IMG/VR virus record: IMGVR_UViG_3300049255_000541 | Length of the DNA stretch: 64,000 bases | Direction: 5' to 3' (one strand) | Source of the DNA: a virus | Shown: positions 20,879 to 27,063 of the stretch, piece after piece | Position numbering within the stretch: the first letter of the stretch is position 1 | How the letters are laid out: every line of letters starts with the position of its first letter | Position numbers and translations under genes: made by a program | Notes under the pieces: model-generated | The model's database searches: none | What the model saw: the letters and a program-made list of their open reading frames with translations, nothing else | Told to the model about the DNA's origin: nothing

Positions 20879-21151
20879 TTACCCTTTCGCGCGCTTGCGT
20901 CCTGCCGGGGCGCCTGAGGCACCTTCGGCTTCCGCGTCATCACCGGTGGTCTCGGGATCTTCGGCGGTTTCCGGCTCCACTTCGTCGTAGACGATCTCGA
21001 CGTGACCAGCCTTCACCCAGGCGGCAATCACCGGGTGGTTGGGGCTGTCGAGCGTGAGCTCGCGGGTTTCCCCGGGGGCGACATAGACGAGCTTGCCCCC
21101 GTTTGCATGGAAACCGCGCGGGCTACGCGCCCGGTTGGTGACGGCGGCCAT
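20879..21151 (-). CDS. Small head-associated protein
   Basis: AVTNRARSPRGFH...VAPGETREL, typical ORF after DUF2184 capsids. Confidence 0.6.
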   Translation of the reverse strand: MAAVTNRARSPRGFHANGGKLVYVAPGETRELTLDSPNHPVIAAWVKAGHVEIVYDEVEPETAEDPETTGDDAEAEGASGAPAGRKRAKG

Positions 21152-22107
21152 TAGCAGCTACCGTCCAGGTAGACTACCGCCTTCGGCAGGCGGATGTCGG
21201 TGCCACCGAACCGGAAGATGCCCGGGATTTCCCAGACCATCGGGCCGCGCTGGAACGGGTTCGGGAGGAAGCGGAAGGGCATCGGCAGATGCAGCTTCAG
21301 CACCTCCGGGTCCTTGCGGTAGGCGATGATGCGCCCGACGCCGCCCACACCAGATGTGTCGAGGCCGCGCACGGAGCGCACGTTCAGCTGCATTCCGGTC
21401 TCGGCCGTGTACACGTTATGCTCACGGATGTAGGCAAGAATGGTCTTCTCGCTGTAGGCGTTGAACGGCGTGGTGGCGATCTGGGTGTAGTCGGCCACCG
21501 GAACCAGGACCGTGTCCGCCAGCTCGACGGTGTTGGTGCTGGTGTAGATGCCCGTCAGCGCGGCATTGAAGTCCGCCAGGATCTGCTGCGGGGTTTTGTT
21601 CACCCACAGGGAGGAATTGCCGCCGCCGTTCGCGGGAATGGGGGTGACCGTCACCTCCGGGTTGTTCACCAGGCCGACGAAGCCTTTTTCGGCGTTACCG
21701 AAAAGCGCGCTCTGGTCGATGAACTCCTCGGCCACCCGGCGCGCCACCTTCGCCTTTTCGGCGGTGAGGTTCACACCCAGCATCTGGGCCTGCATCAGCT
21801 CTTCGGTGTTGTAGCGGTAGCCGATGGCCGCCATCTCGACGCCAGTCTCGTACTTCGCGCGCATGATGTCGGCGTTCGCCACGTCGCCGCTGTTGGCGTT
21901 GAACCAGCCAGCCTGACCGACGCCGTCCATGCTGAAATATGTGACCGACGGCATCCACTCGTTGCCCTCGGTGGCCACGGGGATGATGCTGGGGTAGCGG
22001 ATGGCCGGGTAGCGGATCCGGTAGACCTCACGCTCGATGTGCGTGAGCTGTGGAATGAGGAACGCCAGCGCCTGCTGCGCGTCCATGAAGTTGGTGATGG
22101 CGTTCAT
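21151..22107 (-). CDS. Major capsid protein (DUF2184/HK97 fold)
   Basis: AFLIPQLTHIEREVY, GYRYNTEEL, GLVNNP, YRKDPEVLKLHLPMPF, RLPKAVVYLDG. Confidence 0.93.
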   Translation of the reverse strand: MNAITNFMDAQQALAFLIPQLTHIEREVYRIRYPAIRYPSIIPVATEGNEWMPSVTYFSMDGVGQAGWFNANSGDVANADIMRAKYETGVEMAAIGYRYNTEELMQAQMLGVNLTAEKAKVARRVAEEFIDQSALFGNAEKGFVGLVNNPEVTVTPIPANGGGNSSLWVNKTPQQILADFNAALTGIYTSTNTVELADTVLVPVADYTQIATTPFNAYSEKTILAYIREHNVYTAETGMQLNVRSVRGLDTSGVGGVGRIIAYRKDPEVLKLHLPMPFRFLPNPFQRGPMVWEIPGIFRFGGTDIRLPKAVVYLDGSC

Positions 22108-22199: not shown

Positions 22200-22643
22200 T
22201 TAGCCGAGGCGCAGCTTGACGATCGCGTTCGCGGCGGTGGTCGAGCTGTCGAACGTGCAATTCGGGATCTGCGTGTTCCCGGCGGAGACGTTCGTGATGT
22301 TGCCGTTGGCGTCGTAGTACGCAGGCTGACCTGCGCTCACCGCGACGGCTGCGGTCACCCACGGCACGCCCTTGGTCAGCACGGCGGCATTGCGGCCGAC
22401 CGCATACTGGTTGCCGTCATCGGCAGGCACCTGCGGGGAAACGACGGTCACACCGAGGAACACCGCGTTGGCGGCGACCGGCTGCACTTCGTCATCCCCG
22501 GCACCGCGGAAAGCCAGCACGCCGAAGGCGAGCGGGTTTACCGAGACGACGCGGGAGACGATGTTGTGGAGTTCCTGGTTTGCGACCAGGCCCGGATAGG
22601 CCGCGACGTGCGCCCCCGGGTATGAAGTCTGAACTGCGGGCAT
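22200..22643 (-). CDS. Head decoration/cement protein
   Basis: AVQTSY, LAFGVLAFRG, AVLTKGVPWV; between protease and capsid. Confidence 0.85.
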   Translation of the reverse strand: MPAVQTSYPGAHVAAYPGLVANQELHNIVSRVVSVNPLAFGVLAFRGAGDDEVQPVAANAVFLGVTVVSPQVPADDGNQYAVGRNAAVLTKGVPWVTAAVAVSAGQPAYYDANGNITNVSAGNTQIPNCTFDSSTTAANAIVKLRLG

Positions 22644-23762
22644 TTAAGCGGCTTCCTTCTCATTGGAGGGGGTTTTCCAGGCATCTTTCAGCCCGGCCAC
22701 CATCTCCGCGTAGGAGTCGGTGCGGGCGTCGCGGGTCGGAACGTGTGTCCGGAGCGCGTAGCGGACGGGATCGCGCCCGGCCGGGGCAGACATCGCGGCC
22801 AGCGTGTCGAAGGCGGCGCCGATGTAATCGTCGCTTTTCCCTCCGACGGCCTTGTCGCCCAGCTTGTGCGCCACGGCGGCCCGGCGAATTTCTGCATCGG
22901 ACTTGCCGGATGCATCGAAGCTGTCGCCCAGCACCTTGCGGGCGGAGTCGATCAGGCCAGAGCGTGCGGTGATCAGCTTGTCCAGCGCGGCGGCGTCCGG
23001 AACCTTCGCCTTCAGGGCCGCGATTTCGCCGTCCTTGGTTTCCAGGGCGGTGGTGTGCGAAGCGCGGAGAGCGGCGATTTCGCCGTCCTTGGCTTCCACT
23101 TTCGCCATGGTATCCTTCACCTGTTTGGCGAGCGTCTCGACGGCCTTCACGCTGTCGTCCGCTACCTGGATGGACACGCCATCCAGCAGAATGGTCTTGA
23201 ATTCCATTGTGGTTTCCTTGTGTGTGGGGGCTGGTGTTTCATCGCCGATGCGGCAGTCCGCCCCGGCACGTCCGCGCGCCACGATCGCGACGTGGTTTGC
23301 GCGGATGTTTCTCTGGATGGCGTCGTAAGCCTGTCCGTCGGCGGTGGTGCCTGCGGTCCAGTCGAGATCGCAGGTGTATCCGACTGACAATTCCCGTTTG
23401 CCGGACTGCACTTCATCGACGGCGGCCGCATCGGAGACCATCATCGGCACGCGCACGAACTGGCCGTCGCGCACCACATCGGATCCGACGGAACCGCGCG
23501 CGGTGGCCGACCACGTCTCCGCGGTCACCATCTTCGGAGGGTGACCCAACGTGAGCGGACGGCCTGCCAGCGACGCCATGGCGTCCGCAGCGAAGACCTC
23601 TTCTTCCGGCCTGAGGATGCGGACCATCTTCAGGTCATCACGCCCGACCTCGCGGCCGAGGTAGATCTGGATACCCGTGCGGGCGATGCGCGCGTCGGCC
23701 ACCAGGTAGCCGTCACGTGTCATCCGGGTGCCGTCGAGCACCACGGTGTCAAACATTTCCAT
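22644..23762 (-). CDS. Prohead protease/scaffold (DUF2213)
   Basis: TRDGYLVADARIARTGIQIY, PLTLGHP, GKRELSVGYTCD, NHVAIVARGRAG. Confidence 0.92.
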   Translation of the reverse strand: MEMFDTVVLDGTRMTRDGYLVADARIARTGIQIYLGREVGRDDLKMVRILRPEEEVFAADAMASLAGRPLTLGHPPKMVTAETWSATARGSVGSDVVRDGQFVRVPMMVSDAAAVDEVQSGKRELSVGYTCDLDWTAGTTADGQAYDAIQRNIRANHVAIVARGRAGADCRIGDETPAPTHKETTMEFKTILLDGVSIQVADDSVKAVETLAKQVKDTMAKVEAKDGEIAALRASHTTALETKDGEIAALKAKVPDAAALDKLITARSGLIDSARKVLGDSFDASGKSDAEIRRAAVAHKLGDKAVGGKSDDYIGAAFDTLAAMSAPAGRDPVRYALRTHVPTRDARTDSYAEMVAGLKDAWKTPSNEKEAA

Positions 23763-23771
23763 GTGGAAACC

Positions 23772-25691
23772 TCAGCTTTCGCGGATCGCGGACTGCCAGT
23801 CTTCCTGGACTTCGGCGTATTCCTCGGGGCCCAGAAGGATCGGTCCGCCGAATGGCCTGATAGCGTCCAGGTTCATTCCGGCGGGGGCCGCGTAGGTGAC
23901 GGTCACGTGCGGGACGTAACCCTCGTGATCCCATGAGGCGCCCGCATCGCGGAATGCCTGCCAGCGCTGCGCAAGTCCGGCGTCACCGAATGTCAGGACA
24001 ACCGCATCGCCGAAGCGGCGCAGTTCGCGCGCGCCGGGTGGAATGTCGGTGCCTTCCATGTCCCTTTTGGTCGCCCACCAGTCCACGGGCTGCCGCGAGA
24101 ACGCGACGGTGACGTGCATGTCATCGGGGTCGATTGTGGTGGCGAAACCCTGCTGCTTCGCCCAGGTGGCGATCTGTTCGCCGTTCAGGACGCGGCGGCT
24201 AACGTAAAGTGTACGCTTCCCTGCATCCTCGGTGGACACCATGCTTGTGGGCTTGGTGACCGTGGAAGGATTCGCGGGCTTCGAGCCGTCTGCGGGGAGC
24301 GCCGCAGGTGCCGGGGGAGCCGTGACAGGCGGTGCGTTCTCCAGGCCGTCGGCGAGGCCCGGGTAGATGTTATCGGCCACCATCTGTTGCTGGGCGGACT
24401 TAGCCAGCACCGGAAAGGGAACCGTGCCGGTCGCGGCGATCACCTGCGTGGCCTGGGCCTTCTGGAGCGAGATCGCGGCCTTCTCGGCCTCGGTCATCTG
24501 CCACAGCGGCACCCACTCGTAATCCACGGAGCCGGGGGAAACCCCGGCGTGGCGCTCGAGCGCTTCGTCAAGCCGGAGGATGTCCGGTCCGAGTTCGGTG
24601 GTCTGCTTCGAATTTACGGTGTCGTACCAGTGCCTGATGTTGCTGTCGCCCGAAGCATTCAGGCCGCCGGGCGGCTGGCCGAGAAGGCGGGTGACTGGCA
24701 TGCTGGCGGCGCCGCAGGCGACCTCGAGGAATGCCGCGAGAACCTTCGGGGTGTCGGCCAGCGAAATCTTTTTCTGCTCGTATTCCTCTTCGGCATCGAG
24801 CAGGAACATGCCGTTGATGGACTTCGCCTGCTTGGCCAGGGAGAAGCGGGCGATCATCGCCTGCCGCCAGCCCGCATCGACGGAGTTCCGCGTCAGATCA
24901 CGGATCTTCACCACATCGACTTTGGCTTCCTGCATCAGGCTGGCCAGCGCACCCTGCGCCGCGGCCGCGTTCCGCACGGCGTCGTAGACGCGCTGCAGGA
25001 TTGGGAAACCCCAACCGTCGAACTGACGGCTCATTTCCAGCTGCGGAATGCCCTGGAAGCGCACCACGCGGGACGGATGGATCTGCACCGCACCGTGAGC
25101 TGGCTCGGTCGGCGATCCTGCGGACACGATCTCGTAGAAAATTGGTTCGCCGAAATGCGGAGACAGCGGATCCCGGTCCAGTGCCCCGGCCCAGAGTTCC
25201 CAACGTGAGAGAACATGCAGGTAGGTGATGCCGCCCTTTTTCAACCTGTCGAGATCGAGAGGTTTTGAAACGTCGGTGTCCCTGGTGCCGATGTAGATCC
25301 CAGAGCCGCCGTACAGCCGCGCCTGCCTGAGCGCCGTGGCGACCTTCTGGCGCACCTTCAGCTTTTTCTCGGCCCGCTCCATGGCGGGCACTTGTTTCTT
25401 GCCGCCCTTCCATTTGCGCCAGGCGCGCGTCATGTCATCGGCGACGGCGTCGATGATCGTTCCGGCGAGCCAGTCGGAATAATACATCGCCTCCAGCTCG
25501 TGCTTCTCGAGCCAGTGATTGACGAACTGTCCGTTAGCGCCCTTGTCGGCGGCCGTCCCGAGTTGGGAGACCAGGTTCTGCAGGTTGTCCTGGAACTGCA
25601 TGACGCCCGGCAGGGCGGCGGGCATACCTGATGCCACCTGCGGAGCCCGGGTAATCAGATGGGTATCCAGAGCGTCATACAGGGACAGCAT
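23772..25691 (-). CDS. acb1: Portal protein (DUF1073) fused to a C-terminal Acb1-like 2H phosphoesterase
   Basis: Portal motifs (WLAGTIIDAVADDMTRAW, QARLYGG, HPSRV, PVTRLLGQPPGGLNASGD); Pro/Ala linker; then TLYVS..MHVTVAFSR...GASWDHEGYVPHVTVTY (two HxT motifs) at about 23772-24215. Confidence 0.88.
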   Translation of the reverse strand: MLSLYDALDTHLITRAPQVASGMPAALPGVMQFQDNLQNLVSQLGTAADKGANGQFVNHWLEKHELEAMYYSDWLAGTIIDAVADDMTRAWRKWKGGKKQVPAMERAEKKLKVRQKVATALRQARLYGGSGIYIGTRDTDVSKPLDLDRLKKGGITYLHVLSRWELWAGALDRDPLSPHFGEPIFYEIVSAGSPTEPAHGAVQIHPSRVVRFQGIPQLEMSRQFDGWGFPILQRVYDAVRNAAAAQGALASLMQEAKVDVVKIRDLTRNSVDAGWRQAMIARFSLAKQAKSINGMFLLDAEEEYEQKKISLADTPKVLAAFLEVACGAASMPVTRLLGQPPGGLNASGDSNIRHWYDTVNSKQTTELGPDILRLDEALERHAGVSPGSVDYEWVPLWQMTEAEKAAISLQKAQATQVIAATGTVPFPVLAKSAQQQMVADNIYPGLADGLENAPPVTAPPAPAALPADGSKPANPSTVTKPTSMVSTEDAGKRTLYVSRRVLNGEQIATWAKQQGFATTIDPDDMHVTVAFSRQPVDWWATKRDMEGTDIPPGARELRRFGDAVVLTFGDAGLAQRWQAFRDAGASWDHEGYVPHVTVTYAAPAGMNLDAIRPFGGPILLGPEEYAEVQEDWQSAIRES

Positions 25692-25707: not shown

Positions 25708-27063
25708 CTATCTGGCGCCGGTCACCCAGCTCATGGTGCTGTCGTACGTGGATCCGGTGAGCATGAGATCCGAGAAGCCCCAGATCATGGCGTCTGCCCT
25801 ATCCGGAGATTTGGTGCCCGCGTAGCCATTCGTGGAAAACAGGCAGAGCTGCTCCTCGAGATCCGGAAAGTGTCCGGCGTGCACGACAAGGCCCTGCTCG
25901 TAGAATGCAGCGATCGGCTCGGCGCGCTGCGTCTTGCCGCGGCTGGCGGTGACCAGCGTGACAGGTGCCGTGCGCTCCACGGATCTTATGTTGCTTTCCA
26001 CGAGGGCGCCGCCGAAGTTCCGTTCGGCAACAATCCGGTCGGCGCGCCAGTTTTTGGAGGCATCAACGGATTTCCGGGCCCACCCTTCCGGGCTGTAGCG
26101 TCCCGAAAGATCCGCGAGCAGGTAACCAATGTTGTCACGGTCGATGCCGACAACGCAGATGCCGATCTCGTCGGACCGTTTGTCTTCCTCTCCGGCGCAG
26201 CCGCTGGGGTCCACTGCAACGACGATGCGGCGCATCCTGTTGATGAGGGCCTGCCGCTCCGCTTCGGTAATCCACTGACGTTCGCGCCGACGGCCGATCA
26301 GGTCGGCGGTCCACATCGCGTTGTCGACCTGCGCGAGGTAGCGCCCTTCAAGGAACCGCATGCGGTCCTTCGCGGGCAACGCAGCCAGTTCTTCAAGGTA
26401 TCCTTCACCGAGGTTGCCCAAGTTATCGCCGGGGTTCATCAGGAGAGACGCGTAATCCTGCGGCCGGGAAAGCTTCTCCCCGGATTTCGGTTCGACGTTT
26501 TCCTCGAATAGCTTGTAGGTCCAGTGTGCCCGCGTCGGCGGGTTGAGATCGTAATAGGCCTTCAGCTTCAGACCGGATTTCTGCGCGAGGCGGGTGACGA
26601 CCTTGTTGCGGGCGTCATAGGAGATCTGGCTGCACTCGTTCAGATAGATCGTGCTGTGTTCCTGCCCGAGGATCTTTTCGGTGCGCTCTTTATCGTCGAG
26701 GCCGCCGAACAGGATTTGCGAGCCGTTCCAGAGTTCGGCGAACCAATCTGACTTGTTGAGCTTGTAGCGGACGTTCGGATACGCCAGCTTCATCATCTTT
26801 GGCCACGTGTCGAAAATGACCGAGGTCTTCAGATGATTGAACCGGAACCGCAAAATGGTGTGCCGGGTCTCCGGCATGATGATCGCGCGGGTAGCCGTGG
26901 CGTAGCAGAGAAGAAAAGTTTTCCCGGACCGGCTTCCGCCATACAGGCAGCAATGCCGCGCCGCGCTCGAAAGGAGGTCAACTGCAAGCTTCTGCTTTGG
27001 CGTGAGATCAAAGTCCGGCTGAGTCGGCCCTGACCGTGACAGTTGTGCCGTCCTGCCCGTCAT
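25708..27063 (-). CDS. terL: Terminase large subunit
   Basis: Walker A GGSRSGKT, YLNEC, nuclease VAVDPSG, ERNFGG, SPDRADA. Confidence 0.95.
   Translation of the reverse strand: MTGRTAQLSRSGPTQPDFDLTPKQKLAVDLLSSAARHCCLYGGSRSGKTFLLCYATATRAIIMPETRHTILRFRFNHLKTSVIFDTWPKMMKLAYPNVRYKLNKSDWFAELWNGSQILFGGLDDKERTEKILGQEHSTIYLNECSQISYDARNKVVTRLAQKSGLKLKAYYDLNPPTRAHWTYKLFEENVEPKSGEKLSRPQDYASLLMNPGDNLGNLGEGYLEELAALPAKDRMRFLEGRYLAQVDNAMWTADLIGRRRERQWITEAERQALINRMRRIVVAVDPSGCAGEEDKRSDEIGICVVGIDRDNIGYLLADLSGRYSPEGWARKSVDASKNWRADRIVAERNFGGALVESNIRSVERTAPVTLVTASRGKTQRAEPIAAFYEQGLVVHAGHFPDLEEQLCLFSTNGYAGTKSPDRADAMIWGFSDLMLTGSTYDSTMSWVTGAR

Follow-up and report, generated by a model that had tools for sequence, protein, structure and literature searches.

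Enzymes of the Acb1 family serve phages to degrade the cyclic oligonucleotide signals of bacterial CBASS defence. Acb1, the product of T4 gene 57B, and its counterpart from Erwinia phage FBB1 (7t26/7t27) are free proteins of 144–152 aa, with a C-terminal lid and a catalytic mechanism described by Hobbs 2022 (PMC9117128). The same fold is found in PDE-9 of Burkholderia phage BCSR5 (9q2g/9q2y, deposited as Acb1), which cleaves cyclic dinucleotides (bioRxiv 10.1101/2025.08.21.671373). PDE-9 superimposes onto the domain presented here with a TM of 0.70; it is a stand-alone enzyme whose lid is N-terminal and whose substrate preference is narrower, whereas our domain has the Acb1-type C-terminal Trp segment. 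The same preprint on viral 2H phosphodiesterases includes two multi-domain enzymes, PDE-13 and PDE-16, and makes no mention of portal or capsid fusions. Two other papers naming both 'Acb1' and 'portal' draw no connection between them.

Fusions of portal or MuF proteins to 2H domains were described in 2017 (PMC5512222) and 2022 (PMC9503650), and were predicted to be packaged in the head, injected, and to degrade the nucleotide signals of SMODS (CBASS) or CRISPR systems. Both papers are comparative-genomic predictions. Two reviewed Swiss-Prot entries, each titled 'Anti-CBASS protein Acb1', consist of a DUF1073 portal, a tether and an Acb1 domain: P0DTK9 (Caulobacter sp. RHG1, 627 aa) and A0A494TJG7 (Sphingomonas paeninsulae, 624 aa). 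Neither organism name was found in the text or supplements of Hobbs 2022, where nine homologues were assayed, and the literature search returned no experiment on any portal-tethered form of Acb1. Among phages with this fusion, cyanophage Pam3 alone has a solved virion (8hds; PMC9942802), in which 442 of the 621 portal residues are modelled. The 2H domain is unseen in the map, perhaps being flexible or removed, and the Pam3 paper makes no mention of a 2H domain of the portal.

The window examined here is the whole stretch of 64,000 nucleotides of viral DNA from IMG/VR record IMGVR_UViG_3300049255_000541. It encodes a 639-aa protein in which the Acb1 domain forms the C-terminus of a portal, where the T4 and FBB1 enzymes are free proteins. 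Its architecture aligns over the whole length, by structure, with those of P0DTK9 (39% identity) and A0A494TJG7 (35% identity), which are alphaproteobacterial prophage proteins from a different phage lineage. The architecture class and predicted role are identical to those of the head-fused/polyvalent 2H class of Iyer et al. (2017); with a 2H domain and a portal in one polypeptide of a terminase–portal phage, the protein fits this class. Compared with the partner list of Iyer et al., the relatives reported below, in which the domain precedes a prohead protease or a DUF2213 protein, are a modest extension. The portal–Acb1 fusion is common and not new: it is present in reviewed Swiss-Prot entries, in the solved Pam3 portal and in cultured phages, and has been in print since 2017. 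As the architecture, the family assignment and the idea of a packaged counter-defence are already public, the locus adds little as a discovery. Its value is one of annotation, in that a temperate phage has a likely anti-CBASS enzyme concealed in databases as 'portal protein'.

The fusion gene and its head operon

The gene and its neighbors are arranged as follows.

25708..27063, minus strand: large terminase subunit (Pfam Terminase_6N, Terminase_3 and Terminase_6C), directly upstream in the same operon, ending 16 nt before the portal gene
23772..25691, minus strand: portal–Acb1 fusion gene, 639 aa plus stop, ATG start, stop codon at 23772-23774
24336..25583, minus strand: portal core, aa 37-452, with clip, stem, wing and crown helices (Pfam PF06381, AF2 model, Foldseek)
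24216..24335, minus strand: flexible Pro/Ala/Thr-rich tether, aa 453-492 (pLDDT <50 at aa 469-489 in the AF2 model)
23775..24215, minus strand: Acb1-family 2H phosphodiesterase domain, aa 493-639 (PF23474, AF2, Foldseek, profile search)
22644..23762, minus strand: DUF2213 head-maturation protease/scaffold-like gene (PF09979, E 3.9e-58; phrog_530 'head maturation protease', E 4.5e-108)
22200..22643, minus strand: cement protein of the E217 gp24/Pam3 gp6 type (PF22758, E 1e-29)
21151..22107, minus strand: major capsid protein, 318 aa (PF09950, E 7.9e-81)

The protein has three parts: a full DUF1073/Phage_portal_3 portal, a disordered tether of about 40 aa and a C-terminal Acb1 domain of 147 aa. 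The full-length AF2 model follows this order, the crown helices extending until aa 452 before the disordered tether and the Acb1 domain. PF06381 (Phage_portal_3) spans aa 65-416, covering positions 2-356 of the 357 of the profile (E 2.3e-101; 339.5 bits for a cut-off of 33.8). The best Foldseek matches of the core are the portals of 8hds (Pam3), FCWL1, E217, T1 and Pa193. The HMM score, the portal fold and the position directly after TerL identify the protein as a DUF1073 portal. Portal gp3 of Pam3 is the best solved match (Foldseek E 3.5e-28, 35% identity), and its sequence carries the same C-terminal domain (profile E 3e-49). The Pam3 head module likewise includes a DUF2213 protein and a gp6-type cement protein.

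The head operon has the order TerL–portal–protease–cement–capsid. The DUF2213 gene lies 9 nt downstream of the portal gene and has a Shine-Dalgarno sequence that overlaps the stop codon of the latter.

It is exceedingly improbable that the fusion is an artefact, whether because a frameshift from sequencing or assembly joined two neighboring genes or because the domain is in fact made from an internal start. The portal and the Acb1 domain are encoded by one uninterrupted open frame. The identical 639-aa protein is called on at least five contigs from several samples, and the two-domain architecture is common to 60 further 90%-identity clusters; on these two grounds, an assembly artefact was rejected. 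Many cultured phages have the same architecture, among them phages of Pseudomonas, Rhizobium and Synechococcus. The linker contains a single in-frame ATG (M484, 24239..24241) with no Shine-Dalgarno-like purine run upstream, as had been noted in the first-pass annotation, and an internal translation start for the Acb1 domain was consequently rejected. No support for an artefact was found.

Identity and catalytic residues of the C-terminal domain

The first-pass annotation had read the protein as a full DUF1073 portal followed by a linker and an Acb1-like 2H phosphodiesterase. This reading is borne out by the fold, the catalytic tetrad, a score above the Pfam gathering threshold and profile matches to solved Acb1 structures. 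The strings that it quoted (LYVS, MHVTVAFSR and GASWDHEGYVPHVTVTY) are all present in the translation, its two HxT motifs are located at H526-V-T528 and H595-V-T597, and residues 453-492 are indeed rich in Pro, Ala and Thr.

PF23474 (Acb1) matches aa 493-634 over positions 1-143 of 144 (E 2.7e-34; 118.4 bits for a cut-off of 27). When a profile built from 48 homologous domains was run against PDB sequences, only Acb1 structures (7t26 with E 1.6e-19, 9q2g and 9q2y) and the Pam3 portal were returned. Structure prediction, proposed earlier as a check, gave an AF2 model of the domain with a pLDDT of 93.5 and a pTM of 0.85. Its best solved matches in Foldseek are 7t26 and 7t27 of FBB1 Acb1 (E 1.2e-7; TM 0.66 by query and 0.76 by target), ranked above LigT. 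The domain thus belongs to the same Pfam family as the T4 and FBB1 enzymes and has the same 2H fold and HxT/HxT tetrad, at about 19–20% identity to FBB1 Acb1 by Foldseek; its activity is predicted.

24108..24116, minus strand: first catalytic HxT (H526, T528), invariant in 48 of 48 aligned domains and aligned with the first HxT of FBB1 Acb1
23901..23909, minus strand: second catalytic HxT (H595, T597), with H595 invariant, aligned with PHITLSY of FBB1 Acb1
23796..23798, minus strand: W632, near-invariant Trp of the C-terminal segment, aligned with the C-terminal lid Trp of Acb1

In T4 Acb1, the catalytic tetrad consists of H44, T46, H113 and T115, the bases are stacked by the aromatic residues Y12, W74, F107 and W147, and adenine is contacted by E141 (PMC9117128). 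The HxT/HxT tetrad of the family is intact in the domain, and the two Hx[T/S] motifs are kept in 119 of 120 related domains. The domain, of about 147 aa, also has a Tyr in an N-terminal LYV and a Trp in the C-terminal lid segment: Y496 (of LYVS) and W632 are near-invariant and lie where the N-terminal and lid residues would be expected. His589 stands at the position of T4 F107, that of E141 aligns with A626/E627, and W74 has no mapping. As the F107 and E141 positions are not clearly conserved, the substrate specificity may differ from that of Acb1.

A 2H phosphoesterase could also have another function, such as RNA 2',3'-cyclic phosphate healing (LigT-like, in tRNA repair), cleavage of 2'-5' oligoadenylates, or the degradation of other or narrower signals, for example only the cA3 of type III CRISPR systems. 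This is thought to be quite improbable here. The two base-contact positions that are not clearly conserved would be compatible with such a function, as would the varying substrate range among viral 2H phosphodiesterases (bioRxiv 10.1101/2025.08.21.671373); phrog_755, the PHROG that covers the domain, is labelled 'RNA ligase', and LigT structures are the next-best fold matches with a TM of about 0.55. However, the domain scores 15.7 bits with Pfam LigT (PF02834; cut-off 23.3) and 14.3 bits with 2_5_RNA_ligase2 (PF13563; cut-off 27), compared with 118 for Acb1, and the profile search of the PDB gives Acb1 entries and the Pam3 portal only. A LigT-type role in RNA repair was therefore considered unlikely. 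Furthermore, head-fused 2H versions were never seen associated with RNA ligases by Iyer et al. (PMC5512222). No RNA ligase module was found in the head operon, which comprises only the TerL, portal, DUF2213, cement and capsid genes.

Fusion partners and the predicted role of the domain

An unbiased search for relatives of the domain returned at least 1,962 cluster representatives, most of which are fusions to proteins of the capsid interior. The share of multi-domain proteins is 89% among the nearest 150 relatives; stand-alone relatives also exist. In 83 multi-domain near relatives, the main partners are the DUF1073 portal (24), the S78_2 protease (10), an Alt-like ADP-ribosyltransferase (8), DUF2213 (6) and MuF (4), followed by the Mu portal (3), the HK97 portal (3), the S78 protease (3) and ART-PolyVal (2). 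Single cases are a type IB topoisomerase (two Pfam models, one member each), an NAD:arginine ADP-ribosyltransferase (PF01129) and a ParB-like nuclease. Every recognised partner belongs either to the capsid-interior proteins or to the kind of effector domain that packaged polyvalent proteins contain, and no tail, terminase or shell protein was found among the recognised partners of these 83 proteins. Portals carry the domain at their C-terminus, proteases and DUF2213 proteins at their N-terminus.

The domain tree requires 27 partner switches, indicating that fusions arose repeatedly. The domain of the 639-aa protein falls outside the main portal clade, on a basal branch that is unresolved, and the nearest named relatives of the protein are alphaproteobacterial prophage proteins. 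A scan of genome contigs found only a portal in a Methylocystis MAG with 43% identity over residues 35-446 and without the C-terminal domain. No charge signature of packaging was found, fused and stand-alone domains being alike with a pI of ~5 in all classes.

The portal is expected to form the dodecameric DNA-entry ring of the head, with the Acb1 domain hanging from the C-terminal crown by its tether of about 40 residues. The C-terminus of the portal faces the capsid interior, so each head would contain up to 12 enzyme copies. By homology, 3'3'-cGAMP, cAAA and other such cyclic di- and trinucleotides of CBASS would be cut by the domain at their 3'-5' bonds, independently of metal and with the HxT/HxT tetrad, which would keep CBASS effectors off. 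The fusion gene is presumably transcribed and translated together with the head genes.

As the recognised partners are capsid-interior proteins or effectors of the packaged-polyvalent type, capsid loading is favored. Loading of an Acb1-type counter-defence enzyme into the capsid is probably the reason for the fusion, and is the most likely one; activity would also be expected from free or unassembled portal, either late in an infection or once the prophage is induced. Anti-CBASS activity during head assembly, possibly with packaging in the virion, had been suggested in the first-pass annotation. This is plausible, and the partner pattern favors the packaging half of the suggestion.

It is possible, if rather unlikely, that the same enzyme acts on the same substrates only in the producing cell, through portal that is freshly synthesised, unassembled or bound in procapsids, at the time when CBASS is triggered by head assembly. 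Those copies that end up in finished heads would then be a functionless by-product, and the fusion would secure co-expression and stoichiometry with the late genes, a proposal that carries the same reservation. Consistent with this, the gene is tightly coupled within the late head operon and the Pam3 virion map is without a visible 2H domain. Moreover, a portal-tethered domain would have to be cut free before it could exit the capsid, a point missing from the first-pass annotation. Timing alone, however, could be obtained with a separate gene in the late operon, as the existence of stand-alone relatives illustrates. The domain has been fused independently and repeatedly to capsid-interior or packaged-polyvalent effector proteins, never, among the recognised partners, to a tail, terminase or shell protein, and is oriented into the head; this pattern of partners and orientation makes an explanation by timing only a hard one.

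The tether and its boundary motif

Any arrival of head-tethered Acb1 domains in the next host cell, and any release, is a general matter that extends beyond this locus. If they do reach the next host, phages would have in them a widespread means of bringing along pre-loaded anti-signalling enzymes, and the cluster representatives found here provide many natural test cases.

The end of the tether contains a short motif.

24213..24227, minus strand: D-A-G-K-R, aa 489-493, the local version of the tether-closing motif D-A-x-P-R

It could be imagined, with considerable doubt, that D-A-x-P-R is a site for the adjacent DUF2213 head-maturation protease, so that the Acb1 domain would be clipped in the prohead to give about 12 free cargo copies, ejected with the DNA. 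If this were true, the phage would bring protection against CBASS (and cA3-type) signalling into the cell ahead of the expression of any of its genes. The literature search found nothing on the specificity of DUF2213 proteases. The motif closes the tether in 52 of 54 DUF1073-portal fusions, with near-invariant alignment columns at D489, A490 and P492, and it is absent from N-terminal fusions and stand-alone forms. The tether itself is unconserved in sequence in the 54 homologous fusions, where it is rich in A/P/E/D and ranges in length from 11 to 76 aa, with a median of 37.

A portal and an Acb1 domain in one polypeptide

The head module of the window is of the Pam3/E217 type. The portal-Acb1 gene lies there in a tight head operon, and the top solved match of its portal core is the portal of cyanophage Pam3 (8hds).

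Features of the head operon and of portal-Acb1
25708..27063, minus strand: large terminase, in a tight head operon with portal-Acb1
23772..25691, minus strand: portal-Acb1, single open reading frame of 639 aa
24213..24227, minus strand: D-A-G-K-R (aa 489-493), local version of the D-A-x-P-R tether motif, from alignment A2
22644..23762, minus strand: DUF2213 protein, with a full-length match to 'head maturation protease' PHROGs (E 4.5e-108)
After the DUF2213 gene: cement protein of the E217 gp24/Pam3 gp6 type
After the cement gene: major capsid protein (PF09950)

The first-pass annotation had proposed a portal fused to an Acb1-like phosphodiesterase, and this fusion is real and correctly named. 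Pfam detects a complete Phage_portal_3/DUF1073 domain (aa 65-416, E 2.3e-101) and a complete Acb1 domain (PF23474, aa 493-634, profile positions 1-143 of 144), the latter with 118.4 bits for a gathering cut-off of 27 bits. LigT_PEase and 2_5_RNA_ligase2 scored 15.7 and 14.3 bits, both under the Pfam cut-offs. The Pro/Ala/Thr-rich linker that had been described is present at aa 453-492. The reported lack of an internal ribosome-binding site also holds, as no Shine-Dalgarno sequence was found upstream of M484, the sole in-frame ATG of the linker. The sequence GAGGGA stands about a dozen bases 5' of the true start, and the portal stop codon is overlapped by the ribosome site of the downstream DUF2213 gene. 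Since a single open reading frame has its own start site and no internal Shine-Dalgarno sequence, and since at least five contigs, belonging to several samples, encode the identical 639-aa protein, the fusion is genuine and made as one polypeptide chain.

A full-length AlphaFold model, computed with 54 homologous fusions as input (mean pLDDT 85), consists of a portal core (aa ~37-452) ending in crown helices, a disordered segment (pLDDT below 50 at aa 469-489) and a compact α/β domain (aa 493-639). Modelled separately with a 48-sequence alignment, the Acb1-type domain reached a pLDDT of 93.5 and a pTM of 0.85. Its closest solved structures are those of FBB1 Acb1 (7t26 and 7t27, E 1.2e-7, TM 0.76 by target), followed by E. 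coli LigT and the phosphodiesterase of Burkholderia phage BCSR5. The 48-domain sequence profile matched only four distinct sequences in the PDB: the Pam3 portal (E 3e-49), FBB1 Acb1 (E 1.6e-19) and, from BCSR5, two entries that carry the name Acb1.

In the DUF2213 protein, encoded directly after the portal, the Pfam domain spans aa 14-175 only. The C-terminal half is rich in Ala, Lys and Glu and looks like a scaffold.

Catalytic residues of the Acb1 domain

The two HxT motifs noted in the first pass are H526-V-T528 and H595-V-T597, with coordinates verified by translation. H526, T528, S532, Y592 and H595 are invariant across the domain alignments, and both Hx[T/S] motifs are retained in 119 of 120 related domains. 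The active site of Acb1 comprises an HxT/HxT tetrad and stacking aromatics, with a Trp borne by a C-terminal lid and a Glu for recognition of adenine N6 (Hobbs et al., PMC9117128). In portal-Acb1, Y496, the Tyr of the LYV motif, and W632, the Trp of the C-terminal segment, hardly vary among relatives, but His stands at the position of T4 Acb1 F107 and E141 falls opposite Ala-Glu in the alignment. With the tetrad, Tyr and Trp kept and these two positions not clearly conserved, the catalytic machinery is judged intact, whereas the exact substrate range is not fixed by sequence alone. The enzymatic role is a strong homology-based prediction.

In two metagenomic relatives, P0028 (728 aa) and P0035 (710 aa), the Acb1 domain is in two pieces (aa ~200-265 and ~450-530), the two HxT halves being separated by about 190 residues without Pfam family. 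A domain or a mobile element may have been inserted into the 2H fold at this point.

Prevalence and fusion partners

A domain search of 5.8 billion proteins, limited to lengths of 351-1119 aa, matched 103 clusters in addition to portal-Acb1 itself, all with PF23474. About 60 share the DUF1073-portal architecture; partners in others are HK97-type and Mu-type portals, S78 prohead proteases, DUF2213, MuF and polyvalent-protein domains. Portal fusions occur in cultured Pseudomonas phages phiPSA1 and MR15, the Rhizobium RHEph04/05/06 group, Synechococcus phages, Aminobacter phage Erebus and Pseudanabaena phage Pam3, and prohead-protease fusions in Roseobacter and Edwardsiella phages. The PHROG phrog_146 ('portal protein', 587 positions) spans the entire fusion. 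Two reviewed Swiss-Prot entries titled 'Anti-CBASS protein Acb1', P0DTK9 (Caulobacter sp. RHG1, 627 aa, 39% identity) and A0A494TJG7 (Sphingomonas paeninsulae, 624 aa, 35% identity), align with portal-Acb1 along the whole of their length, so that curated records already give the Acb1 name to orthologous portal fusions. Hobbs et al. (PMC9117128) report activity for all nine further homologues that they assayed, from a source set including 112 prophage sequences; their text does not confirm that the two entries were among these. Fusions of 2H domains to MuF or portal were proposed to degrade the nucleotides of nucleotide-activated defence systems (Iyer et al. 2017, PMC5512222), and in 2022 the same group took 2H fusions to suggest head packaging and injection against SMODS, cyclic-mononucleotide and CRISPR signalling (PMC9503650). 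The fusion type is very common and already known, and portal-Acb1 is one further member of a well-populated class, annotated and discussed before.

An unbiased HMMER search with the domain of 1.84 billion cluster representatives gave 1,962 matches at E≤1e-3 (315 at E≤1e-30). Among the best 150, 17 are of stand-alone size, and the domain is C-terminal in 46, N-terminal in 45 and internal in 42. Pfam was run on 83 multi-domain near relatives (alignment A3). The head partners were DUF1073 portal (24), MuF (4), Mu portal (3), HK97 portal (3), Peptidase_S78_2 (10), DUF2213 (6) and Peptidase_S78 (3); no tail, terminase or capsid-shell protein was among the recognised partners. Portals carry the Acb1 domain at their C-terminus, whereas proteases and DUF2213 proteins carry it at the N-terminus. 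The maximum-likelihood tree, built from 120 domains, requires 27 partner-class changes, and its well-supported branches impose several origins per class. From the partner list, the domain orientation and these switches, it is concluded that the module was joined repeatedly and specifically to prohead-interior proteins or to effector domains of packaged polyvalent proteins.

Members of A3 also unite the Acb1-like domain with an Alt/exoenzyme-type ADP-ribosyltransferase (8), ART-PolyVal (2) or, in single cases, type IB topoisomerase (two Pfam models, one member each), NAD:arginine ADP-ribosyltransferase (PF01129) or ParB-like nuclease; they look like multi-effector head cargo. P0027 (1105 aa), an HK97-type portal-Acb1 fusion, has a LAGLIDADG_3 homing-endonuclease match, which suggests an intein or endonuclease insertion in the portal. 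P0057, P0063, P0073, P0076 and P0080 (826-956 aa) group tightly in one clade; each begins with an Acb1 domain, and the 700-800 residues that follow it have neither a significant Pfam match nor a further PHROG match.

Deployment and tether

Portal C-termini point to the capsid interior. Three points speak against simple delivery at infection. Late assembly has been connected with the activation of CBASS (bioRxiv 10.1101/2023.05.21.541620), so that activity of the free portal would be of value even inside the producing cell. A portal-tethered domain needs cleavage before it can exit. The model built into the Pam3 virion map (8hds) comprises only 442 of the 621 residues of the portal. The Acb1-like domain of the Pam3 portal (aa ~463-620) is missing from these coordinates and is not mentioned in the structure paper (PMC9942802); in the virion it is either mobile or gone. 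If late timing were the sole need, a late gene of its own would suffice, and relatives of stand-alone form do exist. For this reason, and because of the recurrent joining to prohead-interior and packaged proteins, capsid loading is favoured as the selected property of the fusion. Across the class, the domain may be deployed tethered, clipped, delivered or in the cytoplasm only.

In this fusion type both the length of the tether (11-76 aa) and its sequence are hypervariable. D-A-x-P-R nevertheless ends it in 52 of 54 DUF1073-portal fusions, and is absent from the aligned N-terminal fusions and stand-alone relatives. This small new observation could mean that the neighbouring head-maturation protease cuts there, that the motif serves in docking, or that the fusions of the main portal clade share it by ancestry.
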